Under the pieces are notes generated by a model that searched no databases, was not told where the DNA came from, and saw nothing but the letters and a program-made list of their open reading frames with translations. The translations under genes were made by a program, and so were the position numbers. A stretch of 62,289 nt of DNA, counting the filler, from Hausera hauseri (taxonomy: Eukaryota), in assembly GCA_046269625.1 (NCBI GenBank). It is 9 parts of 9 records of this genome, joined end to end, with 100 filler letters (N's around TTAATTAATTAA, not from the genome) between each part and the next. Parts side by side here need not be neighbours in the genome. Positions count along the whole stretch, not along the records: positions 42,997 to 48,989 come from JBJURY010156867.1; 8 more parts are not named here. One strand, given 5' to 3'. Shown here in pieces: positions 22,471 to 58,316 of this stretch (position 1 is the first letter of the stretch; every line of letters starts with the position of its first letter).

Positions 22471-22483
22471 GGATGATTATACT

Positions 22484-33649: not shown

Positions 33650-35093
33650 TTGTGGTCGGACTGTGGAGGCGCCCGAGCCCACGGCACCACACTACCTCCT
33701 GTTATAAAATGACACTGTCGGGGCGCAAGCAAGAAGATAAAGCAGAGAAGTGTAGGCGAATTATTAAAAGAAGTAAGTTTTTGATGTGGTTGAAACAAAC
33801 GTGGAAAGAATACGTTTTGTGTGCTATTGCATCTTTGTATGGACAAGGCGTTGAATTTTGTCGACATTCTGTTCTCTGCTGTATTTTCTGAAGGTAACTG
33901 TCATATTTTTCTTAATATATTGTTTGATTGCTTGCTGAGTTGGTTGAGAGGAAGTTAAATTTTGATTTGACGTGTCAGCAGCTTGAGAACAATCGATATG
34001 TCGTTTTGCGTAATGTTTTGAGTTGATGCAGGTTTTGGAGTATCAGGTTGTCATGCAGGTAGAATGGAAAAAGAATTGAAAGAATCGAAAAAGTTTTGTG
34101 TGGATTCAGCTGAAGATTCCGATGTATCATCAACGAAGAATGCAGGTTTTACGTTAGATAGGTGAACGATTTGTTCCTTATCGTTTTTTAATATAGTAAC
34201 TGTATGTGAGGTAACGTTGAGGACTTTAAATGGTCCTACGTAGTTTGGTTGGAAACCAGAGGGTGACGGACTTTTTGACCAAACGAACTTGGAATTAAAT
34301 ATTGAGTCGGGTAAGTATGTTTTATCTCCATGTACTACTTTACAGAAAGAATCCTGGCTTAGCTGAACGAAGTGATTTTGTGCAGACCTAATTGTTTCGT
34401 CAGTTGGTGTGTTGTCCAAGTCAGTGAGCTCGAAAAGTGCCCGAATTGTGGTACCAAAAAGTGCTTCAGTAAGTGCGCAACCGGTGGTGGTAGACGGCGT
34501 GTTGCGCTACCCGAGTAAGACAAAAGGGAGGATGGTTTTCTAATTCTTGAGATTCGGCCAGGATTTTTAGCGAAATCTTGAGAGTGCGATGAAAGCGTTC
34601 TAATAAACCGTTAGACTGGGGATGATATGGAGTTGTGTGTATGTGATTTATGCCCAGTCGATTAACTAAAGATTTGAATAGTTTCGATTCAAATTGGGGA
34701 CATTGGTCTGTAATTATGTAGCGAGGTGAACCGAACCGGCTAATCCAAATCCTTATGAATGAGCCGGCAATGGAGTCAATATTGATGGAGCGCAAAGGGA
34801 CAGCTTCAAACCAACGAGACGCGCGGTCCATCATTGTTAAGATAAATTGGTGACCATTATCGGAAGATAATGGGCCAACGATATCTACGTGAAATGACTC
34901 AAAGCGAGATGTACATGGGAAATGAAATAATGGTGACTTAAGATATTTAGCTACTTTGAACTTTTGACAAGGTACCCATTGCCTAATCCAACTCTGTGCA
35001 TCAAATCTCACTGATGGCCATGTTACGTGGCGTTTGAGAAGGCGGAATGTAGCCTTGGAACCTGGGTGATGCAAAGAATGAACATGTTGAAAT
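33650..35093 (-). mobile_element. CsRn1-like gypsy 3' half: integrase, GPF module, PPT and 3' LTR start
   Basis: HVDIVGPL, DRASRWFEA, TDQ.PQF, YHPQSNGLLERFHR, YVGPFKV, VHLSNVKP; purine tract then TGTGGTGC at 33691, the same LTR start as at 7017. Confidence 0.9.
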
Positions 35094-35193: not shown

Positions 35194-35300
35194 TGGTTTC
35201 CTCTTTATTGACTCCCAGATATCTGCAGGCCCTGAGGAAGAGACAATAGACGCGTCAGAAAGATAGAGACGAGGTTCAACGAAAAGGACTCTACCTTACA
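35194..35300 (+). repeat. 5' LTR, U5 end
   Basis: 35194-35270 is identical to 42820-42896; ends CTTACA immediately before the PBS. Confidence 0.93.
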
Positions 35301-35303
35301 ATT

Positions 35304-35322
35304 TGGTGACCTCCGATGTGAT
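35304..35322 (+). promoter_or_regulatory. Primer-binding site, tRNA-Trp-like
   Basis: TGGTGACCTCCGATGTGAT versus the canonical Trp PBS TGGTGACCCCGACGTGAT; splice donor CAG|GTAAGA follows at 35335. Confidence 0.75.
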
Positions 35323-35517
35323 CTCCACGACCAGGTAAGACAAAATTAGTTTGACTCCTGGTTGTCGGGATCCGTACGGACATCAGAAAGCCCCAGTGAG
35401 TTGCCTGGGCAATTTAAGCCTTACTTAGGGTAAGCATAGTGCACAGGATATCGACAGTCATTGTCTCTTCGCCAGGCCATTTTATTTTGTGTGTGAATAA
35501 GGTTATTTGTTGTTGTT

Positions 35518-37296
35518 ATGGGTCAGTCATTCCCAAAGCCCATTCCCGGTGAAACCCCACGGAATTGGATGGTCAGATGTGATATAACATACTATGTTGA
35601 TCCATATTTGGATAATTTGGCAGGGTGGACCGAGAATATTGCACAGAGACCTCCTTATCCTCGAGAAGGGACTTTTGATCCCGGCTATCTCGCACCCGCA
35701 CATAGAATGATTTTTGTAGGTATAGGGGACCCTAATTTGGATTATGTATACATGGAAGAAGGTTATAAAGTTTGGTATGACATGAAGAAAGTCTGGGACT
35801 CAAGTAATAAAATATATACGCCAAAGTCAGTACTTAAGGCTATACCAAAACCAAAACAGAATAAAAAGGGGAAGAAGGGTTGTATATCCTCCCCTGAATT
35901 AACTACACGTCCTAAAAGGAAACCTGACTCTATTGTCCCTACACCCTGTAATGATCCACATAGATGTCCCCCGTATTCTCCTAACACTGGTCTGAATCAA
36001 ATACCACCTCCTCTATTCCCGTTGCCGTCTTTATACCCCAATTTGGCCGCCCTGTCAATCTCGGAACCAGTACCAGTTGTACCGGTACCTGCTCCAGTAC
36101 CCATAGGCCCCTCGTCATCTGTTCAGCCGACACCTACACCAACACAGCTTGAATCCCAACCTGTAGTGATTAGAGAGGTCAAGGTAGATAGACAAAATAG
36201 AAAAAAGACAAAAGATAAGAAAAAACGTCGTCGAGATCCTAGTCCTAGTGACTCTGATTCATCTGAATCCGAGCTCCATAGTAGTTCGGATGAGGATAAT
36301 GATGGTCCTGGTATTGATCCCCATACTAACATTGCGTGCGTATGGTCTCGTGGGGCAAGTGGAATTAAGACCAGTCCTCCTACAGTAGGGGAACTAAAAA
36401 ACATCATCGATATTCTACCTGACCCCTTCCAAAACCCACTACATTTCGTCGATAGTCTCCTCGGCTGTTCCCGAAATTGTCAGTTAACTGGGGCCGATTA
36501 CAGATTTATCCTACAACAAAAATTAGGGCCACGACATGATGAGGCGGCGATGCTTGATGCGGTACCAGTCCTCAAACCTGAGAGGGACATCCCCCACAAC
36601 ACTAAGGTTAAAGATGAACAGACAAGGCGCAAAACAGTTGAATCAGATTATGCCTGGGCTAAACCAGAAACATTCATTGCCTTAAAAAATGAATTGACTA
36701 AATATCTTGTACAACGCAGACAGGGAAGTGCAGATTTGTCACAAGTCACTAACTGTAAACAAGATAAAGCTGAGACCACCTCTGTATTTTGGACTAGATT
36801 TAAAGAAGTCTGGACTGTGATTGGTTCTATGGACCTTGATGATAATCATGCTAACCCACTCTTCCTCACCACATTCTTGAATAATTGCAGACCTGAGATA
36901 AGAGCCGTTTTGGTTAACCATTTGTCTGGTCGCAATACACTGACTCTTACTAATGCAGGACAGACTATACGTACGTTAGAATCAGATGGTTTATTTGACA
37001 CAAAGTTAAACAAGGCATGTTTGAATGTGAAACAAGGACCTGGTGGGTTCGAAAGGACCCCCAGACGGAAGGGAAAATGTAACTATTGTGGGAAAGAGGG
37101 ACATTGGGCTCGGGAATGTAAGAAAAGGAGAAAAGATATGCATACAGGACAGTATCAGCAAGGACAGACAGGCCCACAAGGCCCACAAGGTTCACAGCAG
37201 CCTGCCCCCAACACTGTTGCATAGCACCAGCCTCACTATCTGCCCCGTTCACATAACTCACAATCACAACAGCTTGACAGACACGAAGATTACTAG
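35518..37296 (+). CDS. gag: Retroviral Gag
   Basis: N-terminal MG, Pro-rich region with PPY and LYPNL late-domain-like motifs, zinc knuckle CNYCGKEGHWAREC; in-frame TAG at 37222 and 37294. Confidence 0.92.
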
Positions 37297-40200
37297 AGCT
37301 GCCCACAGAGCCTTGAAACCCCGACCGTGGCTATGTTGCATCTCTCCTATGCTTCCTGTCTCAACGAGACTCTTCCCATAGTAGAAATGACTGTGGGAGG
37401 AACAGACTATTCGTTCTTGATTGATACAGGTGCTACAATGTCTTCAATGGGGCAGGAGTACGGGGGGGATTTATCTTCACGGTCTGTCAGCTCTGTGGGA
37501 ATTGATGGGGTTCCTTTCACATCTTCTTACACTCCCTTTTTGCCTGTGGAATGTTCTGCTGATGCCTCCTTGAAAACTTCTTATTCCTTTGTTCACATGC
37601 CTGAATGTCCTTTTAATTTGCTAGGACGAGATCTAATGAGTATTTTTGGCTTGCAATTGACTTTTACTGGGTCTAAGATGACTGTCTCCACTAACTCTGA
37701 AAATCTCACTTCTTTTTCCACTCATACACCGTTCAGTGCGCCTAACTTCTCTTTTGCTGCACAGCAGGCACTTTCTTTACCCCCTTCTTTTTCTATTATT
37801 CCTGTGACTCTGTGGGCAGAACACAAAAATGATGTGGGTTTAGTTCAATGTACACCTTACACAGCCACTGTAAAAACCATTAACCCTGTATACATTAAGC
37901 AATATCCTTTATCCGAAGAAAAATCTAAAGGTATTGATATTGTCCTCTCCTCTCTCCTTGAGCAGGGTGTGGTCATACCATGTTCCAGCCCCTACAACAC
38001 TCCTGTGAATCCTGTCAGAAAGCCGGATGGCTCATGGCGTTTCACACAGGACCTGCGGCGTATCAACGAATTGATCGTCCCTGTCGCACCCATTGTACCA
38101 GATGTGCCTTCTATTATGGCCGCTATACCACACAATCACACTTACTTCTCTGTTATTGATCTCTGTTCTGCTTTCTTTAGTGTTCCTGTTGAAAGCCAGA
38201 CGCAGCCTCTGTTTGCCTTCACACACAGGGGTAAGCAATACACATGGACACGTTTACCACAGGGTTACATTGACTCACCTGCTGTTTTTGCCAGCACGGT
38301 TAAGGAGGCCTTGGGCGAGTTGTCCCTTCCCCCGGGTGCGGTTTGCCTCCAGTATGCAGATGACCTCCTGATCTCAGCAGACTCTGTGGAAACTTGCGAG
38401 ACCGCCAGCCTGTCTCTCCTCCTCCTGCTCGCACAGAAAGGATTCAAGGCATCAAAGACAAAACTTCAATGCTGTCTGCCCTCTGTTACCTATCTAGGCT
38501 ACATCCTTACACAAGGCTCAAAGACTCTATCAGCGGAACGTGTCAAAATCATAACAGACACTTGTCGTCCTGCTACCAAACACGCGCTGATGGCCTTTCT
38601 GGGACTTATTAATTACTGTAGACAGTGGATTCCAGACTGCTCACATTATGACAAGTGCCTCAGAACAGCAATAAAACACTCTGACCCCCTCTCTACTCCT
38701 CTCGTCTGGACAGAAGAGATGTTATCTGCCTTCTCTGCACTGAAACAAGCATTGTCTACAGCACCAGCCCTGGGCCTGCCTAACTATGACCTACCTTTTC
38801 ATCTCTGGGTCACAAATCAGGAGGGCACTGCTTCTGGAGTGTTGGCTCAATCCCATGGGGGTGGCATGCGCCCCTGCGCCTTCCTTTCTAAATCCCTTGA
38901 CCCTGTGGTAAGAGGTTTACCTGCGTGTTTACGTGCGGTTGCTGCCTGTGCTCAGATTGTAACAGACGCTGAGAAAATTGTCCTGTCACATCCACTCACA
39001 CTCCACACCTCACATCAAGTTACACACATACTTAAACATTCTAACACACAACACATGTCTGCCCAGAGGAGATCAGGGTATGAGGCCGTGCTTCTCACGA
39101 CTGAAAACCTTACTATTAAGGCCACCTCTTCTTTCGACACTATAGCACACGCTTTACAGAGACTGCAAAATGCACAAGATGATTGTGAAACCTTTGATCA
39201 TGATTGTCTTTCTGCCATTGTTGAAGACACTTCTATTCGATCTGACCTGTCTACCACACCTCTGCCCTCTGGTTCTGTTCTCTTTGTAGATGGTTCCTGC
39301 TCTAAACCTGCTGATGGTGTTTTTCTCTGCGGATACGCCGTTTGTCAGCTGCCGGATGTTGTACTAGAAGCACATTCTCTTCCTTTTTCATCTGCACAGG
39401 CGGCTGAACTTTATGCTCTAACACGCGCTTGCACTCTCTCTGCAGACAAAGATGTTACCATCTACACTGACTCCAGATATGCATTTGGCGTGGCACATGA
39501 TTTTGGGCGGATTTGGGAGTCAAGGGGTTTTACTGCGGCTGACGGTAAACCAATCTCACACTCCTCCCTCGTTAGGGATCTTATTACCGCCTGCCACCTT
39601 CCTAGTTCTTTAGCAATCGTTAAGACTAAGGCTCACTCAGTAGGGAACACTGATGAAATCAGAGGTAACTCACTTGCAGACAGGACGGCTAAACAGGCTG
39701 CTGCCAACGCCCCACTATGTCCCCTAATCAACACCTCCTTAGTCTCAATGTCACCCTTGCTTAGTGCTATCCTACCTGACATTGACCTTAAAACTCTCCA
39801 GTCTTCAGCTTCTCTCACAGACCAACAGTTCTGGAAAACACAGGGCGCTGAGAAAAAGGATGAGATATGGGTGGATAAGTCAGGCAGGATATGTTTACCA
39901 AGACATTGTACGCAGTTTCTCGTCCGCGAATTTCATGGTCCCACTCACCGCGGACGAAGAGGGGTAGTTGAGGATCTAACAAAAACGTTTTGCATTCTCA
40001 ATCTGCATACAGACACACATAACCACTTAGACAAATGTCTCACATGCGCACAGAACAATCTTACTAAACCCGGCGCCTTACATCAACACATACCAACACC
40101 TGATACACCCTTCCAAGAATGGCAAATTGACTTCACACATTTACCAAAACAAGGACCCTACAAATACCTTCTTGTAATGATCGATAAATTCTCCAGGTGG

Positions 40201-40905
40201 GTTGAAGCCTTCCCATGTCATATGGAAAATGCTCGAACAGTAGTGGCTAAATTAACACAGGAAATCATCCCACGATATGGCATACCTGTAGGGCTAGATT
40301 CAGACAAAGGAACACCCTTTACATCCAAAGTAACACAACTACTGTGCAAAGAACTAAAAATCAACTGGCGTTTTCACATCCCATACCACCCACAATCATC
40401 AGGAATGGTTGAAAGGGCAAATCGGACAATAAAATCAAAATTAAGAAAAACAATGCAGGATCTGGGGACGTCCAATTGGTTACAAGCACTCCCCATAGTC
40501 CTAGCAGACATACGAATGACCTCGCAGGTGTCATTAAATCACCTATCACCTTACGAGGTAGTAATGGGCAGACCTTTTCCGATTCCATGGAAGAGGGGAA
40601 TGCACGCTGTGGGAAATGCTGACCTAGATGTACACCTCAATGAGTATGCTGCAGGCTTGATCAAAACCCTAGATAAATATTGGACACGGGTCAATGCTCA
40701 GAAACCTGACATACCCAAACAAAACACGCATTCCTTTAACACAGGGGACATGGTGTTAGTCAAAAAATTAAAAACCTCTTCCTTGAAAGAGCCTTTATAT
40801 AGTGAGCCTGCAGCTGTCATTGCCATAACTCGAACCGCCGTTTCAACTGATCTCTTTCCAGCAGACTCAAAAAAGTCCCCCCCTAACGGCCCTGGTAGAA
40901 CCTAA
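37297..40905 (+). CDS. pol: Retroviral Pol (PR-RT-RH-IN), in the same frame as gag
   Basis: LIDTGA, LLGRD, YNTP, QDLR, LPQG, QYADDLL, FVDGS, AQAAEL, YTDSRYA, WQIDF, SDKG, HPQSSGMVERAN. Confidence 0.97.
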   Translation, partial: SCPQSLETPTVAMLHLSYASCLNETLPIVEMTVGGTDYSFLIDTGATMSSMGQEYGGDLSSRSVSSVGIDGVPFTSSYTPFLPVECSADASLKTSYSFVHMPECPFNLLGRDLMSIFGLQLTFTGSKMTVSTNSENLTSFSTHTPFSAPNFSFAAQQALSLPPSFSIIPVTLWAEHKNDVGLVQCTPYTATVKTINPVYIKQYPLSEEKSKGIDIVLSSLLEQGVVIPCSSPYNTPVNPVRKPDGSWRFTQDLRRINELIVPVAPIVPDVPSIMAAIPHNHTYFSVIDLCSAFFSVPVESQTQPLFAFTHRGKQYTWTRLPQGYIDSPAVFASTVKEALGELSLPPGAVCLQYADDLLISADSVETCETASLSLLLLLAQKGFKASKTKLQCCLPSVTYLGYILTQGSKTLSAERVKIITDTCRPATKHALMAFLGLINYCRQWIPDCSHYDKCLRTAIKHSDPLSTPLVWTEEMLSAFSALKQALSTAPALGLPNYDLPFHLWVTNQEGTASGVLAQSHGGGMRPCAFLSKSLDPVVRGLPACLRAVAACAQIVTDAEKIVLSHPLTLHTSHQVTHILKHSNTQHMSAQRRSGYEAVLLTTENLTIKATSSFDTIAHALQRLQNAQDDCETFDHDCLSAIVEDTSIRSDLSTTPLPSGSVLFVDGSCSKPADGVFLCGYAVCQLPDVVLEAHSLPFSSAQAAELYALTRACTLSADKDVTIYTDSRYAFGVAHDFGRIWESRGFTAADGKPISHSSLVRDLITACHLPSSLAIVKTKAHSVGNTDEIRGNSLADRTAKQAAANAPLCPLINTSLVSMSPLLSAILPDIDLKTLQSSASLTDQQFWKTQGAEKKDEIWVDKSGRICLPRHCTQFLVREFHGPTHRGRRGVVEDLTKTFCILNLHTDTHNHLDKCLTCAQNNLTKPGALHQHIPTPDTPFQEWQIDFTHLPKQGPYKYLLVMIDKFSRWVEAFPCHMENARTVVAKLTQEIIPRYGIPVGLDSDKGTPFTSKVTQLLCKELKINWRFHIPYHPQSSGMVERANRTIKSKLRKTMQDLGTSNWLQALPIVLADIRMTSQVSLNHLSPYEVVMGRPFPIPWKRGMHAVGNADLDVHLNEYAAGLIKTLDKYWTRVNAQKPDIPKQNTHSFNTGDMVLVKKLKTSSLKEPLYSEPAAVIAITRTAVSTDLFPADSKKSPPNGPGRT

Positions 40906-41096
40906 AACATGAAAAGTTGCTCTCACCTGTTTGTGCTCTTTTCACAGAAGCAGTGAATTAACTTAGACAACAGCTGACGTCCTTACAGGGGTCTTCTCTC
41001 TCGGCGTCCCTTGGGGTCTGGCCTGAACAAAGAGGAGACTTGTCGGTGCGTCTGGAATTCACGATCTGCTACCTGGAACACAGAGGGAAGGCAACC

Positions 41097-42420
41097 ATGT
41101 GGTCAGTGACCTGTATGACCACCATCCTAATCATCTTGCTTGGAGCAGGGCTGCCCGCTCAAGCACATCCACATGACAACACCTTCTGGAAGTACGCCAA
41201 CTGGACCGCGAGACAACAAACCAACGAATCATGCTACGTCTGCCATGCTATGCCCACTAGTGTGACCACTTACTCCCTGAGGCCACAGAATGAGACCTTG
41301 AATACCACTCTCCTTGCTGTCAGCCGGACCTGCATTAACCCACGCTGCCGTGCGGGACCCAAATCCGAGTCTACCCTCACACACGGTCATTTCCTGGCAA
41401 AAGATGCACTAAATCAATGCGGCAGCACAACGGTTACTCCAGCAGAAATGCATTCATGTGTAGTTAGAAATAAATTAACGATGGTAACAGAAGTACAAAT
41501 GCAACCCTTCAAGGCCATACTTGGACCGTTTCATCGATTCCCTGTTTGTTTTAAAAGAAAGGGCAATGTGTCGTTAGGATGGAACTCACCATCTTCATGT
41601 GATGTTATTTATCAACCATATGAGCTCAATAATACCTGTAGTACTACGAATTGTTCCGTCCTCGCCCCTAGTGGTAACGGCACCGGTTCGACCCTAGACT
41701 GGTATTGGGTGTGTGGAAAAAATGTGTTTCTGTCTTTACCACAAGGATGGAGCGGAGTTCGTGCCCCCACCACATTTGCTAACTAGGTAGTTCTAGTATC
41801 TCGCCATCCCTTAGGCGCCGCTCACAATAGATCGCGCTCTAAGCGCTCTGCGGACGATGGGTTTCCCCCTCCTGAACATCAGATAGTTTCCCCAGGAACT
41901 AAATTTTGGCATGCAATTTTTCCCCAGTATGGTGTCACTCAGTTGTGGAATCAATTAGAAATAACCCATTATAGATTAGCAACCTATGTAAATGCCACTA
42001 ATGATGCAATTGAGGGAATACGAGGCGAATTGACAGCCCTTAGATTAACTGCCGTACAGAACAGAATGGCTTTGGACATGCTCCTCGCTGAGAAAGGGGG
42101 AGTATGTGCCATGGTGGGCGATACCTGTTGTACTTTTATCCCGGCTAATGATGATGAACATGGTTCCATCTCCTCCGCTGTTGTAAACATGAAAAAGGTT
42201 GCTGAACAATTGCACCTAGACAAACATGGTGCTGTGGGAGGATGGGGCTCCTGGTACAGCCTCTTTGGCTGGAAGACCCCTTATTTTTTATAATCATTGC
42301 TGTTGTAATTATTGGTGTATTTTTCTGTATTTTCTGACCCTGTCTTGTCAGGTGTCTAATGAATCGCGTTTATTCTATGGTTTCCGCTATGAATCCGCAC
42401 TCTCACCCTGACTACATACC
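41097..42420 (+). pseudogene. env: Gamma-type Env with an in-frame stop and a frameshifted anchor
   Basis: Signal peptide, CYVC, TAG 41784-41786, furin site RSKR at about 41835, ISD QNRMALDMLLAEKGG, CX6CC. Confidence 0.93.
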
Positions 42421-42500
42421 TTTTGCCTCTAGTTGTGATAAACAAGATATGTGTTCCGCTGTTAAAATATGATGATGCTTATTCTTAATTAATTAAGCAT

Positions 42501-42896
42501 AAAAGAGGGGAATGTAAGAATATAGTTGATATATCTGCTTTGTGTAACTAACATATGTTTTTTTAAGTGTCACGTACAAGTTATCATTTTGCTTAAATAA
42601 GAGCATTCTGTGTTCTGCCTTTGCTCATTTAACTGTCCTAAATCATGTGCTAAGACTGCTATTTGTTCTGCTGAGGAAACTCAGCCTTGGCTATGGGAGG
42701 GGAGTATGGGAGTACCCTCCTTGAGCACTGGGCTGGGCCTCTTAACTATAAATACCACCACAAATGTTGCTGTCATTCGAGCTTTGTAAGAATAAATCAG
42801 ATTCACATTGAGTTGTGTCTGGTTTCCTCTTTATTGACTCCCAGATATCTGCAGGCCCTGAGGAAGAGACAATAGACGCGTCAGAAAGATAGAGAC
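42501..42896 (+). repeat. Polypurine tract and 3' LTR
   Basis: AAAAGAGGGGAA then TGTAAG at 42513; TATAAA at about 42747; AATAAA at 42791. Confidence 0.93.
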
Positions 42897-42996: not shown

Positions 42997-43133
42997 GATG
43001 TTGTACTTAAGGTGTCTGAACTATTGGTAGGGCTAAGATTTTCTCTATCTAAATCGATCTCGTTAATTGCTGTTATCTGGCTCTGTGTTAATCGTCCGCG
43101 GGATCGAGTATTGTACTGGTGTCCCTGCGCCAT
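42997..43133 (-). CDS. Start of a possible gag-like ORF, truncated by the contig end
   Basis: MAQGHQYNTRSRG; YNT/LRSR-like motifs are common at gypsy Gag N-termini; only about 45 codons are visible. Confidence 0.4.
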
Positions 43134-43168
43134 TGTTATTAAGTAAGACTAAATTGTTACCCATTTTA

Positions 43169-43728
43169 TTATATATATACAGTACATGCTTCATCTATGG
43201 GCAATTTGCACATTACACATTTCGAATCCAAAGAATGTACAAGAGTGCAGTTTTTACAATGAATAATATGTCCACACGGTAAGTAAATTGTGTTTGCTTA
43301 ATTTTTCTTACAGCTTATACAAATCCAAATGGTACGAGTAAGGTCTATGCATCTTTCTTTTATTTCTTCCTCTTTTTCTTTTAATGTTGAAATCAAACAT
43401 TGAATTCCGTGATAATAATCGTTATCCATTAACTGCATTTGGTGATTATTTTCGGCAATGCTTCATATTCTGCATTCTCATCAGTTTTAATAGCGATCAT
43501 CGTCAAATATTTAGAATATCCCAATTCAGTTATCCTGTCGAGTAATGGGTTATTATACAATCTATACCATTCGTATGTTAATTTAAATGGTTGATTCTTT
43601 ATCGTCATTACCTGAATTGTCCATTCTTTAAGGCTGACCAGGGTCATATTGTCAGTAATTGAGGGTTCTACAATAAATTTATTCAATTTTATCACAAAAT
43701 TCATATAAGCTAAATAACATTTATTCAA
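43169..43728 (-). pseudogene. Decayed protein ending in an IAP-type C3HC4 RING (RING part absent from the ORF track)
   Basis: 43429-43169 reads CISCKKN*ANTIYLPCGHIIHCKNC...CVMCKLPIDEACTVYI*; internal TAA at 43298-43300; overlaps the stop of the upstream 99-aa ORF (TAATG). Confidence 0.75.
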
Positions 43729-43746
43729 TTACAACTATATTAATTG

Positions 43747-44969
43747 TTAATCCAAGTCCATATCCATCAAAGTTATTCCACTATTTTCCTCTGAAAATTG
43801 GAAGTATGCTACTCGCCTTTCGGTAATACTCCTACAAACTGGACAGTTCGTTGTTTGATTCGAACAATTTTCACATGTTTTCAGGTGACAGCAAGGTAAG
43901 AAAATAACCTGTGCTACGTCCACATAGCAAATCACGCACTCCAAATCGCGAAGATAAAAATTATCAAGAATATTTCGTTCAAGTTCTCTTTCTTTCTCCG
44001 GAGGAATAAAATTTAAACTTTGACATAATTTGAATACATTTGGTAACCAGTCTGGTTGAGTTTCTGTCCGATATTTTATATACTGTAATATATTTTCTCG
44101 TTTAGTAGGATGTTTTGATAGTACCGATGTAGCCACTGGACTATCTTGATAACATTCATATAGTTTTCCGATATTAAATTGTATTCTGCATTGTCTCTTG
44201 GTGTGTTTATCGAAGATTCTGTTTACTGAGTATTCGCACTTGTTGGTATGTAATATTTTTGGACATCGTTGATCAAGGTTTTCTAACCAATACGTTTCTT
44301 GTAAGCATATAGTACATTTGACATACTGTTTTTCTTCCTTAGATATCAATATTAGTCCTTCTTCGGCTAAATGTTCGATCTCTCTTTTTCCATTGAAAGT
44401 TAATTTTCTCTTTTGTACTGTGTTTGAAATCCAATATGCATTTTCTTCCGCTGTATTATCCGTTGAGTAAATTACCTTTACCGACACTGTTGCGTTATAA
44501 TTCGTATCCTTGTCAAGATCAGGTCTTTTGACAAATGTATCTATGAGCGGTATATCACTGACATTGAGATTTAATAAATAAGGGCAAGTGGCATGCGATT
44601 TCTTATGTGTTTTATTTGGTCGATTTTTCGTTTGTTCATATTGGAATTCTCCTTGGCAATAAATGCATTTAATCTGTCCTGTTATAGTTCTGAATAACCC
44701 GGTTTTGGCATATGCTTGCGCTAGTTCGTCCGGAATAGGCGAATTTGGGAATTTCAGGAACGATATTGTTTTGTTTTGTGCATCTCTCATGGAGTTATCC
44801 AGTACTATAGCTTTGGAGTAGCTTACCAGTCTTTTAATAAATGATGCCGGTCCGAATTGTCTATTCTGGTAGTGCAATATATATTGCGCTATATTAGATT
44901 GTGCGGGTTTAACATATTCGCACTGTTTCGGTGTTCGGAATTCGTATTCTTTGACCTTTGTTATTTCGG
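43747..44969 (-). CDS. iap: Inhibitor-of-apoptosis protein, two BIR domains plus C-terminal RING
   Basis: BIR1 SF..FP...AKTG...KCIYC...H...CPYL; BIR2 RKLTF..LAEEG..VKCTIC..W..H...C; RING CVIC..VIFLPCCH..CENC..CPVCR. Confidence 0.9.
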
Positions 44970-45019
44970 CTAAAATGTAATATATCCAATAACATCGCCA
45001 AATTTACATAAATATTTAT

Positions 45020-45330
45020 TTATAAATCCTTTACAGTATAATAAGCATTTTTATATCTAAATAATGTATTGTTAATGCGACATTTTGGGCATGAAATCTC
45101 GACTGCAAACCACCCTTTTATGCATTGTCGGCAGAATTGGTGTTTACATATGGTTAATTCTATCGGATCCATCGAGCATTCGCTCAAACAAATGGAACAC
45201 TCTTTTCCTAAATAAGTTAAAGTTCCCTTTGGATCATATATGGAATAACTGTTGTCTGCTGTTGTAGTGTAACGAAATATTGAAAATCCGTAATCCAACA
45301 TGTTCGTTCTATTCATCCCGAGGTAAAATC
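45020..45330 (-). CDS. Small C3HC4 RING finger protein
   Basis: CSICL...CKHQFCRQCI..W....SCPKCR. Confidence 0.9.
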
Positions 45331-45375
45331 CTTAATAAGTCAAAATGAACGACTTGTAATTAATTTTATTAACAA

Positions 45376-45816
45376 TTAATTTTCATAATCTAAAAATGTA
45401 TTTAGTTGTGGATTTCTCCACTGTTCCGGCCAACTGCCGTCATCCTCATCAATTACCAATACTATAGATGGCCGACTATCAATATTCAAATATGTGATTA
45501 TTCCTTCTGCAATGTAAAAGTCTACTGATTCGAGGCAGTAAGGGCACCATTGACAAGATCCCAAATACTCCAAGATACACGGCCGACAAAACACATGGCG
45601 ACATGGTAAGATAATCAGGTTATCTGCCACTAATTTAAGGCACACCCAACAAAATGTGCAGGCTCGTCGACAACAAGGGCAGTTACTTTGTTCGTTCAAC
45701 CAAATGTCGATGCAAAGCTGACAATATGTGTGTCCACATGGTAATGTTGTCCTTTCATTCGTCATTCCTTCAAGACAGATGGGGCAAATGTCTGTAATCA
45801 ATAAAACTAACTTCAT
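45376..45816 (-). CDS. Tandem double RING finger protein with acidic tail
   Basis: CPIC..LPCGHTYCQLC..W..CPCCR followed directly by CWVC..LPCRHVFCRPC..CPYC; SIVLVIDEDD tail. Confidence 0.92.
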   Translation of the reverse strand: MKLVLLITDICPICLEGMTNERTTLPCGHTYCQLCIDIWLNEQSNCPCCRRACTFCWVCLKLVADNLIILPCRHVFCRPCILEYLGSCQWCPYCLESVDFYIAEGIITYLNIDSRPSIVLVIDEDDGSWPEQWRNPQLNTFLDYEN

Positions 45817-45847
45817 TAACTATTACTATATTTCATTACAAATTTTA

Positions 45848-46080
45848 TTAACCAATTAATTTATTACTTTCCTCTACTTCACTATCCGACAGGGCACAAA
45901 CAGGATATATTAAAAAATAATTTTGGTCCATTGTCATTGTACTCAAATTAGCCTCTTCTTCACAATAAGCACATTCGAATATGTCTTATTGGTGGCTCAG
46001 TTTCTCAACGAAGTGGCATAATGGGCAGGGATTTTCTTCCTCGTTATAGGTTTCCGAAATCCTTTTGCATACAATGCACC
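45848..46080 (-). pseudogene. CxxC zinc-finger ORF with an internal stop (absent from the ORF track)
   Basis: CIVCKRISETYNEEENPCPLCHFVEKLSHQ*DIFECAYC; TAA at 45986-45988. Confidence 0.55.
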
Positions 46081-46220
46081 CTAAATTCGATATAAGTTAA
46101 AATTTATTATTGGATTGATTTTTAATTCTTCTTTAATTATAATAAGCTATTAGCATTTTTCTCTCATTCATTTATACTATTCATTTCACTTTAAAACAAT
46201 TAAGATAAATATTTATTATC

Positions 46221-46507
46221 TCAAATTGCCATTTGTACAAGTCCGTTAGGACCGACTACATATAACGGAGTTGGGTCTATTATTCTATCTTCCTGTTCTT
46301 CTTCCTCCTCGTCAAAGATCACCACTGTAGTGACTCCCAAACAATTATAGCTACTCGCCTTTCTCCTGCAAAAGTAGCAATTTTGTTTCCTCGATAACCA
46401 TTGATCGGCACACCTGGTACACATGATATGTGTACACCTGAGTAACGCGTAACGCAATCCAAGATCATTGTAACATATTGTACATTTTGTACGTCTGGTT
46501 CCAATAT
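46221..46507 (-). CDS. C3HC4 RING finger protein lacking an ATG before the domain
   Basis: KCTICYNDLGLRYALLRCTHIMCTRCADQWLSRKQNCYFCRR; TVVIFDEEEEE tail. Confidence 0.85.
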
Positions 46508-46591
46508 CTAATAAAATATAATCAATGTTTACTTGCGGATAATAATAATAATACTATAAATCACAACAAAATGCTCAGCCCTCGAGTCTTT

Positions 46592-46609
46592 TCCTCACTC
46601 GGGGCACCA
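46592..46609 (-). promoter_or_regulatory. Primer-binding site complementary to elongator tRNA-Met
   Basis: Minus strand TGGTGCCCCGAGTGAGGA matches, at 17 of 18 positions, the complement of the animal tRNA-Met(e) 3' end as recalled (TCCTCACACGGGGCACCA), including CCA. Confidence 0.75.
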
Positions 46610-46800
46610 GTTTATATGTTCGCACAGGGGTCAAAACTAAACAGTTGACCTTTAACGCGTGCCAACATATAAAGGATAGCTTTGAGAATATAGTTAGAGT
46701 AATTTAAAAGAGTTTATTTATCTTCTATATTTTCTTCTAGAATTGCTACTCATGACTATATTTGCATACGTCAACATACGAGTCCTTATAGGAAGGTTCA
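46609..46800 (-). promoter_or_regulatory. LTR-like R/U5 region (5' boundary unresolved)
   Basis: On the minus strand TATAAG (46790-46785), AATAAA (46718-46713), then ...TATAAACT overlapping the TGG of the PBS, as in AGT...ACT-type gypsy LTRs. Confidence 0.5.
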
Positions 46801-48562
46801 TACGTGTTAACATCTTTCCTTACCTTTTTTCCTTACCTTGATTGCTTATTGTTCCTGATTAGAGTTTAAACCTGATCGACATTGACATGAATTTTAATCC
46901 ATTGCGTCCTTGACCATTGTTGGAGAATAATGATATTCGGTACAACGTTAATCATATGCATTCCATATAGTTCTAATAGAAATAAGAGTATTTTATTTCT
47001 GATTATCCATGCAATGATATGGAAGAATGGTGAAGTCCATCTACTTGTTAGGATTATAACAACCACCAAAATATAGTGGTCATTCAATATTCAATCATGC
47101 AAACCATACCAACAGATTAAAAGACAAGTCAACGTTTATATAAAATCCGGAATTAGTTTCCATATTTAACCGGAAAAAAATCATAGATTACAGATCCTCT
47201 TCATCTCCGATCACATCTCACCTTTAAACCCCTATAATTCGAAATTGATTGTCTCAATATGGTTAGTTGTTTGTACTACCGTTCGTATATTTAACAACAT
47301 CCTACGACATTTAAACTCTAATACAATCAATATCAGGTTTGAGACAGCTCAGTAACTCCGTACATCAACTCAACACTATAATCCATGCCGTTATATCAGC
47401 TGGCAAAATAATCTTACTCATAATCTCGCGCTAAGTCGCTAATTATTAATCAACTCCAAGACAAGCTCTCTAAATTCTATACTAAATTATAATACATGTA
47501 CAAAAATATTTTAAGTGACAACACAAAATTTAAATGAGGTATATATATATATGCACTGGTACGTCTGACTTTTACTAAACGAATTTGCCACCAACCTTGA
47601 CTACAAACTCCAGTACAGACACTGCACCATTTCTACCATTGACCATCAGACGTTAGGTGTCATGATCTTTCAGCAGAGTATTATCATCGCATCGACTTAT
47701 CTGTATTGATTCATACATATTGATGACCAAAACTCATTGTTGCATCACAATATACACCTCTATATTACCGAATATGATATTTTAGAAAAGATAAATAATT
47801 TATCAATACTCAACTCANNNNNNNNNNNNNNNNNNNNNNNNNNNNNNNNNNNNNNNNNNNNNNNNNNNNNNNNNNNNNNNNNNNNNNNNNNNNNNNNNNN
47901 NNNNNNNNNNNNNNNNNNNNNNNNNNNNNNNNNNNNNNNNNNNNNNNNNNNNNNNNNNNNNNNNNAGCTGCTTCTGTAGGCTCACACGTGCACACAGCTC
48001 AATCAGTAACTGAACCTGATCAGCATTTAACCAATCGATTTGTGAAACAGAGATCTAAAACATGCAGATGTGGGCAGAGTTCTCTATTCCTAATGCTAAG
48101 CAGGGGTCTATACTAACGCAGGGCTGCATTAAATTACATATGTAGACAATGCTAGCCCTTGTTCCCCTGGACCTAGTGTGACGAAAGATGGAAGCACTGT
48201 CAAAAGGTTTCCTAATGATATACAAAGGTGACATGTAATCTAAGATGTCAACCAAATTGTGCTTTCATCATGTGGTTCCATAATTTAATCTGTCTGATGA
48301 ATGTCCTGGCATCTGAAGGACTAATCTGTTTCAAACCATCATAAGATATTGAGTTACCACAAAGTCTATGGTTACCAAAACAACTATTTGATATTCACAA
48401 AGCTCAAAGCTTGAGTCAGCTAATTGTTTATTCTTTTTTTAAAAGTAGTATACACCCAATGTCTCCATTCATTATAATATTTATTGGATTTGCTATAATT
48501 TTTAGCCATGAATTTTTCCAAATCTATTAAAAAGGAGAGGCAAATAGCATTTATACTGGTTT

Positions 48563-48850
48563 TTACAGGAAGCTTAAATTTTGTACAAAACGCTTGAATT
48601 TTCTAAAAAGCTGATTGGAAGCAATATCCAGATGATCAACCGTAATTATGCGACCATAATCAATGTTCATATATTTTACATATTTCGGATCATTGCAAAG
48701 ACATATACAATCACTATTAGTAGAATTTCTACAGAAGGAGTTATAATTATAAATTCTTCGACCTAGGGGTCTAGGATATTCATAGACCTTATTAATTGTT
48801 GCATTAATATGCCTGTTTTTGCATTCACGTGCAACACAAGGAACGCCCAT
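48563..48850 (-). CDS. Possible THAP-like N-terminus (DNA-transposon related)
   Basis: MGVPCVARECKN...YP resembles the THAP start; the canonical W and CxxHF are not clear. Confidence 0.35.
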   Translation of the reverse strand: MGVPCVARECKNRHINATINKVYEYPRPLGRRIYNYNSFCRNSTNSDCICLCNDPKYVKYMNIDYGRIITVDHLDIASNQLFRKFKRFVQNLSFL

Positions 48851-49299
48851 TATTTTCGTTTAAAATTAACACAAAAAACGATTGATTAACATTAGAAGAA
48901 CTGGCCTCACTCTCAAGTATGCAAATCAGTGACGTTTGAGGCGAACCCTTCAATTGGCTGCATTTTGTTCCTTTTATAGTGTAAGATCGNNNNNNNNNNN
49001 NNNNNNNNNNNNNNNNNNNNNNNNNNNNNNNNNTTAATTAATTAANNNNNNNNNNNNNNNNNNNNNNNNNNNNNNNNNNNNNNNNNNNNCCACGGTACTG
49101 TAATAGTACAACAGTGCATGACGTTGATTATTGCCATAGTAGAATAAAGCAGTACTATGGCGTCACAGCGGTATGCGGTAAACGGACCTATGTTTGTCAC
49201 GGTTGTTCTATAGTTGAAGCACAAATCAACTATAAATATTTTATAACCAGCACAAAGACCACTTGTAACAATTTCAGCGGTCCAAAAAGCAAATAGTAA

Positions 49300-52225
49300 T
49301 TGACGCAACAAACAGCAGTATCAGCAGCAGCAGCAGCAGCAGTAACATCAACAACAACATAAACAGCAGGAACCTGACATTTCCATTACTGTCAAGTACG
49401 ATCTAAACAGATCGTACATGGACATAAAAGTTGACATGATACCACAAATTTCAGTACAGTTAAAGCATGACCGTCCAGTGTACGCAACCGGTTGGAATTA
49501 GAAGTGAAGAAATTCCAACACAACCACCAATACCACTGAGACGTGCAGTATTATACACTGGCAGAATTTGAAAATTTGAAAGGTGATATGAAACAGTGGC
49601 ACCTATCACATCAAGTCGAACCGTATTCCGACAATTTTATTGCCCTTGTATGTGAAAATGTCAATGAAAAAATCGCCATCTGTACCGAAAAGGGTAGAAG
49701 CTGGCGAACTATAAAAATTGTCACTCTCGACTTTAACATAAAAAAGTTCAGTGATATAATTTACTTGTCTGTACGATCATTCATACCGACACCTGAAGCT
49801 CTGAAGAACTCTTATGCGGTATTGAAAATAAAAAATACTGACGATGAATACTGTTTTATTCACAGTGTTCTGGCCGCATTAAAATATAAGGAAGTGGACA
49901 GACATAATGCATATCGTCCAAATCAGTATCGGCAGTATTTTTACGATTTAGACTTTGATGAAAGCTGGATGTCCATGAAACTAAAAACCATTCCGACGTT
50001 TGAACAACGTAACCGGACTCTGTCAATTAACATGTTTTGGTACAACACATTCGTAGGAATACCAGGAGAAGAAGAGATTTACAAGAACCCCATGTGGACA
50101 TAATCTATAGAAGTTGGAACCCGAATGGACGCCCAATAAATTTGTTGCTGTTAGAGCAAAAGGAGGAGGAAAAATTCCATTACGTGGCCGTGACAAATTT
50201 TGACAGACTGTTGTATATGGAACATGACCAATTCATCAAAAAGCGTATATGGTGTAAATGGTGTCCTATATGCCTGCATGGATTAGGTCGAAAACAACAT
50301 GGGAGAAGCATGTGACTGTGAGGTCAAAATTCTGCGGGAACAGCGATGTACGTCATGCCAGTCAAAAAGGAGCTGAGATTCAGTATGTGATGAAAATCCG
50401 ACAGTCTGGCGTATGTGGTATATGCAGATGTTAAAGCCGTTCTACCACGAAACAATGAATAAAATCAAAAGCACATTTCAATCGCTGTCGGTATGTTGGT
50501 AGTCCCAATAAAAGCCACTGGTCAACCGCAGTATTACGTTTTCCACGGCTGGAACTGCATCCGTGATTTCTTGCATCAGTTGGAACGCACCCTGGTACGG
50601 TAATAATAGCAATAAAGCCTTGATGCAGACAGATGAATATGAACCATTTGCGGCTTGTGCCACAAAATATTACCGTTCAAGGCAAACTAACGGCTCGTAC
50701 CAGATCGATATGTCGGAGACGCATGTAATTAATGCAATTTGGCAAGGCGTGTGAAACCGTTCATACAGGTGATCTTTCAGAACTTCAGGGATTATAATTG
50801 TCACCATATTTTGAAATGGGCAATAAACGGATTTCCGCACTAGGAACTATCCATAATTCCGACTACGATGGAGAAATACCTGTAACTGTCTGCTCGTGTA
50901 AACCGGTTCCAGGTACTCTTCCTTCATTCATTCAATTTCTAAATGAATCATTGGCAAAGCTGGTAAATGCCTTGCCAGATGTACCGATAGCATTGACGCA
51001 GTTCCTCGCACATATCCCATGCAGCAAAGGAATATTTCCGTATGACTTTGCAACATCGTATGAGTAACTCCAGACATCATAGGAATTACCGCCGCAATGG
51101 ACAGGTATCGCAGTGAATGAATACCGGAAAGCACAGAGGTGTTTGACAGAACTAGGCTGTAAAAACATGTTGGATTACATGCTCCAGTATCTTAAACTGG
51201 ACATGTACTTATTAGACGATGTGTTCCAAGCGTTTCAAGCGAAAGTGTTGACTGAAGATAGGCTGGAGCCACTCAACGTTTATTGCATACTGGGAATGAG
51301 TTGGGCGTCAACAAGCACCAGGTCAGTTCTACCGATACCATATCACTGCGGTATATTGATATTAATAACCTGAATGGCTGGACCCTTTCGCAACCATTGC
51401 CGTACGGTTCATTCGAATGGGTTGTCGATGGACAAGATCTGGACGACATAATGGTCAACGTATCACCAGCATACACGACAGGCTCAGTCGGATACCTGAT
51501 AGAGGTCGATTTCGTGGCACAAGATGAGCTGCATGACGTTTTGGACGATTTACCGATCGCACCATTTAACCAATGTCCGCCAGGCTCAAAAGTGAAGAAA
51601 CTTCTAATGACGCATGAACCGAAGCTGAATTACGTTGTCCATTCGCGTCTGCTACAGTTCTACATGCATCTCGGTATACGCGTCACACTGCTGCATCGTG
51701 CAATCCGATTTGCTCAGGCTCCCATATTCAAGGCGTACATAGATGGAAATTCGAAGAAACGAACCGCAGCTTGTAGAAAGTTCAAAGAGGACTACTACAA
51801 GCTGAAAAACAATTCCCTGTACGAAAAAACAGTGGAGGATCTGAAAAAGCGGTTCAATGTACGTCTATGCAATAGCGAAAATCGGTTTGTTACGTACATG
51901 GGTAAGGCGCAGTTTCGGCGGTAAATGCACATTGGCGATGGATTGGTTGCGGTGCTGTTAAGCAGAAAAGAAGTCGTTCTGGACCGGCCAAGTTACATCT
52001 GACAAGTGGTATTGGACCTGAACAAATTGCGGATGTATGAGCTACAGAAGCGGCAGAAGGAGGAAGACAATCAGTGGCTGTTGTATCTCAAACGATCATC
52101 CGATCAATTGAACACCAGCTGTACACAATAACTAGTGCGAAAGTCGCTTTGTCATGTAACAATGATAAGTGAAAGTGGGTGGGACGAAATAAGAGTTGGG
52201 CGTATGGACATTGGCGGCTGAAATA
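49300..52225 (+). pseudogene. polB: Protein-primed family B DNA polymerase, copy 1
   Basis: CFIHSVLAAL, NLLL...HYVAV, FLNESLAKLV, KGIFPYDF, YLKLD..LL.DVF, YIDINNL, KLKNNSLYEKT; the motif C region is missing. Confidence 0.9.
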
Positions 52226-52499
52226 AATGCATGTCCAAACAATTGGTGCGCTGTCGGTTCAGACAAATCAGTTCAGTTCAGTTCAGTTACTGCGACAATC
52301 ACTGACAATTATCCTATGTATAGTTTTTTTATATTTCAATAACGTATTTTGTTCAGTGTCTTTTGTGTTTTGTTTTCGGTTACTTACTTAACCTAGTATT
52401 ACTAAGTAATATAGAAATAAAAGTAAAACAATAAGCTTTAACGAAGAAACAAAATATGTAACATGAATACATTTATATATTAATCGGAGAAAAACTAAA

Positions 52500-52849
52500 A
52501 TCACAAAAACACACAAATTAAACTTCCCCATTTTCCATATTGGGGATTTGACGCCGCTCCTTTTCTTGAATCCTTTGAGCTTCAGTGTCAGGTAACCTGT
52601 AGATCCTTCCGGTGGCCAAACTGCTGTTGCTGCTGTTGCTGTTGTTTTTTTGCCATTCGAACTGACAATTTTCTCCACATTTCCTTCGAAAAAAATCGAC
52701 GGTGTATTTTGGATAACGTTACTCAATGCCAAATTACTGTCAACTTTTCTAATTGTGTCTTCCATCGTATCCAAATCATCGTCGCTGATCTTTTTCACTA
52801 ATAGACCATATTTCACCGGTTTGATTTTGATCGTTCGCATCAATGGCAA
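52500..52849 (-). CDS. Polinton accessory protein of about 100 aa, copy 1
   Basis: VKYGLL.KKI.D.D...L.LSN.I.NT.S..F.G...GY..L.LKG.K...G.KSP.WK.GKF shared with 61408-61707. Confidence 0.65.
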
Positions 52850-52889
52850 TTAAATAGCGTTGCGCAGATAATGTAAATGGTATCCATTA

Positions 52890-53945
52890 TACAACTGTAA
52901 ATTTCTGAGCGAATATGTAACGTCAAATGTGTCGTTAACCTGAACAGAAATTTAATGGGTTGCCAAAATTCATCAAGCATATACACGGAAATACTGTGCA
53001 CAATATTGTGAGTCAAAGATAAGTACATGGGTCTGAGCATATTAACGCGAACAGTTTTACCCGATGTTTTTTACGTGTCAGAATTTAATTAAATAGAAAC
53101 CAGTAGTTGTTTACGTTCTCCACCAACGAGTACGGATTCGGTTAAGTCCGTTAAAATGTTGATTCTATGAAATGCTCCATATAGTTGCGGTTTGTATTTG
53201 GCAACAATAGATTGCCCAACAATGGTTTGATAGAATTCGCTTTCCGATAAACCCAGATTTCTAGCCAATAATTCATCAAAGGCAAAATATGTTACACTGT
53301 CATGTAGACTAAGCGAAATATGACCATCTGCGTTTATTTCGCGTGTGTTTACAGCTAATGTAGTCGTTCTCTTGAAGTTTTCACACAATTCCAGTTCCGT
53401 TTCCATTAATAAATCGCGTGGTATAATCTATGAGCGGAAGACAGATTCTGACTTAGTCCGCTTTACTATAATATCGGATTCCGCATTAGTTGAAAGGTCC
53501 AATTTTTCACCAATTATAACATGGCCACCTAGATGTAGACGTTTTGAGTGTACATTGACTGATTGAAAACCCCATGCCCGAGCATCAGCTATAGATTTAA
53601 GCTGCATTTCAATGAGATTTCGATGTATTACGGCAGTATGAAAAATAAGCATAAACCGAGAAATGTTGTCGCGAATAATTGGGAACAGTATATCGATTAT
53701 TGTGTCGGATTGTTCGCAAACGATTTGAAATAGGGTACGTTTCTTGTTGGGTAAAGTAAATACCACTATTTTGACGTATTGCCATTAGTGAAAATGTAAA
53801 TGAAAATTTGGTCAAAGCCACTTCTCAAGCTCCCTGGCCTAAATCGACCGGTTGGTCCAAGTGCATGGTAAACTGTTTAGGGGTATTGTCATTGTCGTCA
53901 TGTTGTGATAATGATCTGATACTATAAATTACCAAGTAAATACTG
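52890..53945 (-). pseudogene. Polinton minor capsid (penton) protein
   Basis: N-terminal NTPKQFTMHLDQPVDLGQGA*EVALTKF; C-terminal TDLTESVLVG...LL and YLSL...ISVYMLDEF..PI.F...LTLHIR. Confidence 0.75.
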
Positions 53946-53949
53946 CTCA

Positions 53950-54945
53950 GTGAATCTGTGATGCAAAATCCAACTCGGTGCAGTATATCCGTGCCACTTG
54001 ACGATACATTGTTTATTCTAACGTTTGCCACCTGAATGTAGAATTTCCTGAATACAATATACATAGGGTTTCTCGGGCAGTACCTGCAGTTCCTGTTCGT
54101 AGAATGCGCCGCGTATTTCATCACTGGTTTCATCCTCTGGTTTCATGACAGGTGTTTGTTTTGTGTTGATTGCCGAAATGCGAAAACCTCGTCGCTCCAG
54201 TTCTGATTGAAATTCTTAATGATGGCGTCATATTTATTTTCGAAATGCGTACGTAAGCACCAATTTTATATTTTGGGCGTTTAATTGCTCTTTGTCGGTT
54301 TTGATAAAGCCACATGTCCAAATTATCGATTACATCAACCGGGCGCATTCCGTTGATTCCAGTGTGTCAAATGATGGTACATCTATGCAGTACATTTACC
54401 CAGCGTTTGTTGCCTTACTTCGTAAAGAATTTGTTTAGGGGACCTCGAAATGTTCGATTAAATCGTTCAACGAGTGCAGCCTTGTATTGGGAAAACACCG
54501 AGTAGTGGTTTACGCACAACCGTTTCAATACTGCTGCAACGTGGGCGTTTTAGAATTCCTTACTCAAATCCGTTTGTAAATACTTCGGCTGTTGTTGCTG
54601 TATCAGTGTCTGAGCAGCAAACTCTTTACCAGATTTCAATTTGACAGAAATTGCGAGTGCAAAACGACTAAACACATCAATACCTATCAGCACGTACAGA
54701 TACCCATCATTAATTCTGGGGTTCGAAATAATTTCCATCAAATCCATTTGCATACGTTATTTACACCGGCAGCACGGTATGCATGAGTTAAAAACTGCCT
54801 TCTTATTGATTTGTTTAGGCTATATGATAATTGTTTCCCGAGCCAACGTTGGGTCTGTTGCCGAGTCTGTTTAACAGTCTTTGCCAATTTGTCGACGCCA
54901 GTATGCCCGACGGGATGATGCGGGTAGAACCATACATCGCTCATC
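53950..54945 (-). pseudogene. Polinton retroviral-like integrase with C-terminal chromodomain
   Basis: QMDL..I...NDGY.YVL..IDVFSRFA, LQTD..KEF, KAALVERFNRT, PKYKIG.YVRISK, IVKWHGY..PSWI. Confidence 0.9.
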
Positions 54946-55129
54946 GTTGTCGTCGTCGGTGGTGTCGTTTTTGTTAGCATTACAACAATTTGAACGAAAC
55001 ATAAATGAAAGATTCGGTAAACTGCAGCAAAAATATGAAAACCTTGTACCCATATAGAAAATCACAATATACTTACCGTCATTGTGTATACTATGCTGCC
55101 GCAGTATCGATAAGACCACACAGTAATAA

Positions 55130-56290: not shown

Positions 56291-56354
56291 AAATTTTGTT
56301 TATAATCACACACATATATAAATAGGTGCAGCATGAACACCGTTTCAATCAATC

Positions 56355-58228: not shown

Positions 58229-58316
58229 TGATTTGTGATGATAATAATATCAATACTAATAGTTAGTTGTTTTGATTGCTTTACAAACAAAAAAATGATT
58301 CTGTATATGATAAGTA

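Follow-up and report, generated by a model that had tools for sequence, protein, structure and literature searches.

What is a compact array of six small genes, five of them of predicted ubiquitin-ligase types including an inhibitor-of-apoptosis protein (IAP), doing immediately behind a primer-binding site (PBS) in the genome of Hausera hauseri? The array, here called the cassette, lies on the minus strand of record JBJURY010156867.1 (assembly GCA_046269625.1), which fills positions 42997-48989 of the window, a 62,289-nt stretch of nine records joined by spacers, and which ends at 42997. The evidence supports a mobile, high-copy, PBS-led IAP/RING cassette. On balance, we lean towards reading it as the 5' end of a single, aged copy of a long terminal repeat (LTR) retrotransposon, a high-copy Ty3/gypsy element of the giant, gag-env-pol Burro kind, whose leader would hold six alternative-last-exon genes served by one short first exon. 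Copies were studied through the assembled contigs of two public runs, X1 and X2, placed on a 4.8-kb stretch. In the direction of the minus strand, the features are as follows.

46700-47817, no strand assigned: low-depth upstream sequence, either unique flank or the copy-specific interior of an LTR; depth 6.9-23.9 in 7 of 7 X1 bins
46609-46699, minus strand: candidate shared LTR end of at most about 90 nt; depth 5929 in bin 46539-46699, but 35-131 at 46541-46588
46592-46609, minus strand: PBS-like 18-mer, tRNA-Met(CAU)-like according to a published PBS table
46221-46508, minus strand: U1, RING with an acidic tail; acceptor 46508, no in-frame ATG before the RING, AATAAA 46217
45848-46081, minus strand: U2, cysteine-rich open reading frame (ORF) with three CxxC; acceptor 46081, internal stop 45988-45986, no in-frame ATG before the first Cys, AATAAA 45849
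45376-45792, minus strand: U3, tandem double RING; acceptor 45792, in-frame ATG 45816 upstream of the acceptor, AATAAA 45370
45020-45331, minus strand: U4, RING; weak acceptor 45331 (AAG), own ATG 45316, AATAAA 45020
43747-44970, minus strand: U5, intronless IAP; acceptor 44970, AATAAA 43725
43169-43668, minus strand: U6, broken ORF ending in an IAP-type RING; acceptor 43668, ATG 43647, AATAAA 43170
42997-43149, minus strand: ORF7, ATG ORF; acceptor-like AG 43149 (phase 0), ATG 43133, 45 open codons to the record end

The cassette is a high-copy repeat family. Its word shares in the two public runs are 0.55 and 0.12, and 4445 X1 contigs and 612 X2 contigs map to the 4.8-kb stretch, mostly 80-95% alike. 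Summed X1 contig depth, which is not a copy number, reaches 11517 over ORF7, 1197-12645 over U5, 75-2558 over U1-U4 and 5929 in the PBS bin, as against 7-24 in all 7 bins above 46700, a contrast of ~500-fold between the deep part and the upstream part. Depth and divergent contigs alike are those of a multicopy repeat, as expected of an LTR retrotransposon, although dispersion itself was not seen. One X1 contig fuses 46591 to 43295 and omits 3295 nt from the PBS to the last RING (depth 6; 29 letters on the short side); it is possibly a deletion derivative.

The 18-nt site at 46609-46592 shares one base with an ...AAACT end, and over its first 12 nt it pairs at 11 positions with each of the two Met-CAU tRNA ends that terminate in GGGGCACCA (PMC13524379 supplement 1), the comparison being with published tRNA ends and not with the host's own tRNA set. 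A PBS abutting the 5' LTR end, as in LTR retrotransposons, is thereby present, and the overlap of an ...ACT end with a tRNA-Met-like PBS, which the first-pass annotation of this DNA had proposed, is confirmed. A 30-nt stretch (46638-46609) adjoins the PBS, beginning with AGTTT and finishing with AAACT; such 5-nt inverted ends are weak evidence, being a mere 5-mer. Since the depth is only 35-131 at 46541-46588, the deep part of the PBS bin lies within 46589-46699, which is as closely as the coarse depth bins bound the shared end. What very many copies have in common is thus the PBS with no more than 90 nt ahead of it, and neither the TATA-like site nor the AATAAA at 46718. A TATA and an AATAAA had been listed ahead of the PBS, and we assume that those at 46790 and 46718 were meant; with bins of summed depth 7-24 against 5929 at the PBS, they fall outside the repeat-shared part. 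Host-gene fragments were sought upstream of the PBS in 12 frames, and Pfam gave no match below E 0.067. No copy of this upstream sequence was found in the other records of the window, and the PBS pattern occurred in 0 stretches of the viral contigs. Its one match among metagenome contigs (L003) was set aside as unrelated: the contig is prokaryote-like, the match looks like the end of a tRNA, and a called gene for a similar tRNA-Leu lies close by. Within the window, no tRNA gene was found, and an Rfam scan returned only one weak snoRNA match, under its gathering score.

Behind the PBS, the six units show a common architecture. Each is preceded by a T-rich or A+T-rich AG acceptor, which sits 2-23 nt before the first domain residue or ATG of the unit, and all six acceptors are in phase 1, in which an upstream exon would have to contribute a single base. 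Under a fixed rule that takes the best-scoring AG in a 30-, 45- or 60-nt stretch at each anchor, 6/6 units give phase 1, and the same-phase probability is P = 0.002-0.003 with plain shuffles and 0.003-0.005 with shuffles in which the frames were held open. AATAAA overlaps every stop or follows it within 22 nt (6/6, P 7e-6), and in U1, U2, and U5 the domain or the homology starts without any in-frame ATG before it. Same-phase acceptors and one polyadenylation (polyA) signal per unit, 6/6 for each and assessed post hoc, are what alternative last exons would show, and these signals make it likely that one shared leader exon has the six units as its alternative last exons. Three phase-1 donor candidates with an upstream ATG (46803, 46779, and 46649) are weak, with 4/7 consensus matches each; 46649, with its ATG at 46668, is the sole one of the three inside the shared end. 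The first-pass annotation, which had listed the units in order, missed this per-unit arrangement of acceptor and AATAAA, the least familiar feature of the cassette.

The largest unit, U5, consists of a family-specific N-terminal extension, a BIR, a shortened BIR, a helical domain, and a RING. Pfam recognises the RING (PF13920, E 9.8e-11) and one BIR (E 5.6e-5), and homology begins ~55 codons ahead of the first in-frame ATG (44790). In a 62-row alignment, the BIR1 ligands C99, C102, H119, and C126 are near-invariant, and so are the cysteines of the second BIR, which Pfam does not see; BIR2 retains C216, C219, and C242, with a shorter H-to-C spacing in 4/4 close rows. An AlphaFold model built on the same alignment (mean pLDDT 76.5, pTM 0.40) matches NAIP over the two-BIR span, residues 53-253 (Z 10.3, root-mean-square deviation (rmsd) 14.3, 163 aligned), and DIAP1 BIR1 (Z 9.4, rmsd 2.6, 84 aligned); its RING matches the folds of cIAP/XIAP/IDOL RINGs. 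U5 combines a BIR fold with CxxC-H-C zinc ligands and a C-terminal IAP-type RING, as an IAP should, and the earlier reading of two BIRs and a RING is borne out, the second BIR by the alignment cysteines and the fold match to NAIP. A near-perfect 22-nt palindrome lies at 44870-44891, inside the IAP coding region.

By sequence comparison, the U5 IAP forms its own family. Although 1617 representative proteins match at E<=0.001, only 2 (P0002 and P0003) fall below 1e-30. P0001, P0002, and P0003 are 45-49% identical and have the N-terminal extension and the shortened second BIR in common, and P0006 is a distant member of the family (probability 99.8%); all four lie on ENA contigs (1.9-16 kb) that carry no annotation. 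Annotated host IAPs are at best 27-34% identical to U5, those named, from amphioxus, brachiopod, echinoderms, and Daphnia, reaching 28-34%, and viral IAP folds match it at just 11-28% identity (BFVD). None of 364 candidate stretches in metagenome contigs (JGI) and none of 280 in viral contigs (IMG/VR) was confirmed as a close relative of the U5 IAP; IMG/VR gave two weak matches, L001 and L002 (E 1e-3, 51 aa), at the RING/BIR level.

The remaining units are smaller. The RINGs of U1 (Pfam E 5.7e-9) and U4 (E 9.5e-9) and the two RINGs of U3 (E 7e-18) uphold most of the six co-oriented units named earlier; the CxxC finger assigned to U2 has nothing better than E 0.12 in Pfam. A search of viral contigs for the U3 double RING confirmed 0 of 22 candidate stretches. 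U6 is disrupted by a frame change near 43440 and an internal stop at 43300-43298, and its RING-bearing frame matches IAP-type RINGs (E ~1e-8 against 167 stored proteins), in keeping with the decayed sixth ORF first described. A UBA reading of the first half of U6 scored -1.2 bits and was rejected as unproven.

How might such an array be expressed? In the proposed scheme, an AUG plus one base would come from a first exon close to the end of the LTR. Choice of an acceptor, together with the unit's own polyA signal, would then yield one-gene mRNAs, which may lack the PBS, while unspliced RNA would continue into gag-pol, be packaged, and be primed by tRNA-Met. The IAP may keep the host cell alive during replication of the element, as reported for the B-IAP of the planarian element Burro1, and the small RINGs would probably attach ubiquitin to host proteins of restriction or cell death. 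More tentatively, it is possible that the element is a giant envelope-bearing retrotransposon with a switchable six-gene panel, in which a tiny LTR-encoded exon is joined to any of six terminal exons with their own polyA sites. It would thus gain DNA-virus-like anti-death and counter-defence functions without lengthening its polyprotein, possibly from an LTR of which the copies share only 30-90 nt.

The Burro part of this reading draws on another record of the window. The minus-strand record 15215-19706 is a decayed retroelement in one frame with several in-frame stops, in which a Monjiviricetes-type fusion gene is followed by protease-like, reverse transcriptase, and RNase H regions. Among 13 long matches, its best relative is P0169 (E 1e-168), a 4057-aa polyprotein with the order CCHC, ubiquitin-like, env, ankyrin, protease, reverse transcriptase, RNase H, and integrase. 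Both have env before pol, the Burro order, and therefore Burro-type elements are present in the same window as the cassette. There is no physical link between 15215-19706 or P0169 and the cassette, nor any DNA similarity between that record and the cassette record, and the lengths of the ENA contigs of the IAP relatives (15990, 6828, 6672, 3474, and 1864 nt) gave no link to the contigs of the P0169 cluster (12631-15073 nt). The cassette does carry the apoptosis/ubiquitin cargo (BIR, RING) of Burro-like elements, and its membership in Burro, or even in Ty3/gypsy, is no more than likely. A second long polyprotein, P0170 (4038 aa, gag-env-pol), has a PHAX RNA-binding domain match (E 3.5e-10) after its integrase.

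Several points weigh against the retrotransposon reading. Two tRNA ends labelled 'others' in PMC13524379 supplement 1 fit the PBS-like site equally well (11/12), and an 11/12 fit to one among many tRNA ends is not rare by itself. The sequence above 46700 is not common to the copies, unlike an ordinary long LTR, and in a record that ends at 42997 the cassette has no linked polypurine tract, second LTR, or target-site duplication. It has no linked gag or pol either, the record being a fragment with only 45 codons of ORF7. The depth values carry the added caveat that X1 may be the source sample. The selection signal is weak: in a test on 40 of 838 difference rows, 36 of them coding, 16/36 coding differences were synonymous against 30% expected (P 0.05). 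As for splicing, the acceptor score and the anchors were picked post hoc, after inspection of the sequence; with an unlimited window the top AG of U1 becomes a phase-0 site further upstream; the U4 acceptor is weak; and U3, U4, and U6 each possess an ATG. Two strong donor-like sites (46836 and 46823) have no upstream ATG, and no donor was identified. Of the gypsy-like element with acquired ligase and anti-apoptotic genes that had been envisaged, the high-copy, PBS-led cassette stands; its Gag, pol, LTR promoter, and second LTR could not be demonstrated in this record.

ORF7 is where a gag gene would be expected, and the alternative that survives best turns on it. The earlier claim of a gag ORF at 43133 holds in so far as there is an ATG ORF of 45 codons; its identity as Gag is suggested by its position, no search having backed it. 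This too counts against our reading, as ORF7 has no match at E<=10 among 21 candidates and none in Pfam, and against the stored long polyproteins it reaches 5 bits at best, the N-terminus of P0169 being dissimilar. Its YNTRSR motif, which resembles a basic motif of retroelement proteins, was rejected as a sign of Gag: P0169 has a looser version of it within or behind the integrase only, and not at an N-terminus. The cassette could accordingly belong to a non-autonomous LTR element that carries IAP/RING cargo only and is mobilised by a helper Gag-Pol, with ORF7 as a seventh accessory gene. The very short shared end and the X1 contig joining 46591 to 43295, a hint of deletion derivatives, are in its favour along with the silence of ORF7. 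Nevertheless, ORF7 comes after the last polyA signal, begins with its own ATG, is richer in G+C (42% vs 29-39% in the units), is as deep as the IAP, and has both of its listed differences synonymous, which fits the start of a long ORF without proving it. We consider the non-autonomous element unlikely.

A different account of the same transcripts would resolve the units as an operon, by a trans-spliced leader or from their own starts, instead of by cis-splicing to an exon of the element. A polyA signal followed by the next acceptor is the operon pattern in some invertebrates, and here the next acceptor comes 5-140 nt after each polyA signal. In addition to the ATGs of U3, U4, and U6, the P0001 and P0002 proteins begin with Met near the position of the U5 acceptor. 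However, a leader without an AUG would not fix the phase, and one that ends in AUG, as the flatworm spliced leader does, would require phase 0, yet 6/6 acceptors are in phase 1; moreover, U1 and U2 have no space for a start before their first Cys. The operon is improbable on these grounds.

Large DNA viruses and Polintons typically have tightly packed genes, A+T-rich DNA, and IAP/RING content. The cassette shares all three, pieces of Polinton-type polymerase lie elsewhere in the window, in other records, and the full-length fold matches of U5 are mostly viral IAPs, so that the cassette might be a block of such a genome, with a PBS that arose by chance or belongs to the margin of an adjacent retroelement. 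This appears very improbable: the IMG/VR relatives are just the two weak RING/BIR-level matches, the viral IAPs are only 11-28% identical, no pPolB, integrase, capsid, or other virus core gene and no terminal inverted repeats were found in the 6-kb record (itself a fragment), and the PBS bin, among the deepest, abuts U1. Least probable is a host gene with many alternative last exons, in the style of lola and mod(mdg4), amplified by segmental repeats, for although same-phase acceptors, separate polyA signals, and absent start codons are the signature of such genes, the cassette is very deep with 5-20% divergence, its IAP is intronless, its spacers are tens of bases, a PBS stands at its head, and the nearest annotated host IAPs are 27-34% identical.

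The surroundings of the cassette are mixed. Its record has 34% G+C and an observed/expected CpG ratio of 0.92, and contains a 148-N gap at 47818-47965, beyond which one further feature lies.

47966-48989, no strand assigned: upstream scaffolded contig, with no Pfam match in six frames

On the minus strand of this contig, a 95-aa ORF (48850-48563) has a start judged by eye to be THAP-like and no Pfam match. Because the cassette record stops at 42997, the retrovirus-like genes at 35194-42896 belong to another record. That record (plus strand) is a vertebrate-type endogenous retrovirus with Gag p30, pol, and a TLV-coat env interrupted by a stop near 41784; its CpG ratio is 0.51, and an exact 77-nt repeat at both ends probably reflects an assembler circle. 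Records 1-5309 and 49090-62289 are decayed Polinton-type pieces with a DNA_pol_B_2 match at 51262-51921 and with dUTPase-like and ATPase-like frames recognised by eye; they show an internal duplication ~8.4 kb apart (73-82% identity) and 70% similarity to each other. Gypsy-type pol fragments at 5410-10501 and 30876-35093 are ~70% alike across the integrase region, and record 19807-30775 has degenerate tandem repeat arrays at 19801-20600 and 26140-27260.

Why would a spliced leader of this kind matter? Burro1 is an example of an LTR element with an IAP on which host stem cells depend for protection. Should the favoured retrotransposon reading be correct, such cargo would recur in another animal lineage as a splice-selected six-gene ligase panel, and the accessory genes of retrotransposons would rival those of complex retroviruses and large DNA viruses. 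How the genomic RNA passes six polyA signals would then be a puzzle, and the small RINGs would offer direct handles on the host proteins that restrict such elements.

Among known systems, the errantivirus env and the accessory genes of complex retroviruses are expressed from one 5' exon spliced to alternative acceptors. Their acceptors lie downstream of gag-pol and use the common polyA site of the 3' LTR, whereas those of the cassette come before the putative gag, with a separate polyA signal for every one. The IAPs of baculoviruses, nudiviruses, and invertebrate herpesviruses resemble U5 in being intronless two-BIR and RING proteins of a mobile genome; they differ in sequence, at the low identities given above, and the cassette has a PBS and no DNA-virus gene context. 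In the MDG1 group (412, mdg1, Stalker, and Blood), according to the accessible part of its description, small ORFs (sORF1 and sORF2) separate the LTR from gag; there is a polyA site inside this region, and splicing evidence is lacking (10.1101/2025.03.14.642691). As far as that part goes, these two ORFs encode a nuclear protein and a FAST-like fusogen, without RING or IAP.

Burro elements share cargo with the cassette. Burro1/GYPSM1 of planarians carries BIR, AIR1 (RING-type), MATH, BCL2-like, and ankyrin motifs, and a Burro-like element of Dugesia tigrina has an upstream accessory ORF (PMC6431247). The BIR and RING region of Burro1 (B-IAP) is reported, at second hand in the part of PMC13465017 available, to shield stem cells from caspase-mediated death. 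No LTR element with a six-unit spliced RING/IAP leader was found in the literature covered, a scope outside of which are the main Burro papers and their supplements, which may describe such a layout; the accessible parts of PMC8532177 and PMC11410931 hold nothing on the layout of Burro. The first-pass statement that no described element has this organisation is therefore weakened by the IAP cargo of Burro1 and the coding leaders of MDG1, and persists for the six-unit spliced layout. The cassette and Burro (compared by description, not by sequence) are alike as high-copy LTR elements with BIR and RING-type apoptosis/ubiquitin cargo, and in the upstream accessory ORF of the D. tigrina element. 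They differ in that the cassette lacks MATH, BCL2, and ankyrin and has six small separate units, five of them RING-bearing, each with an acceptor and an AATAAA, whereas the cargo of Burro is described mainly as domains of a ~5000-aa polyprotein (PMC6431247). IAP cargo and coding leaders are thus known already, and what would be new, on the literature covered, is the array of units each with a same-phase acceptor and its own AATAAA.

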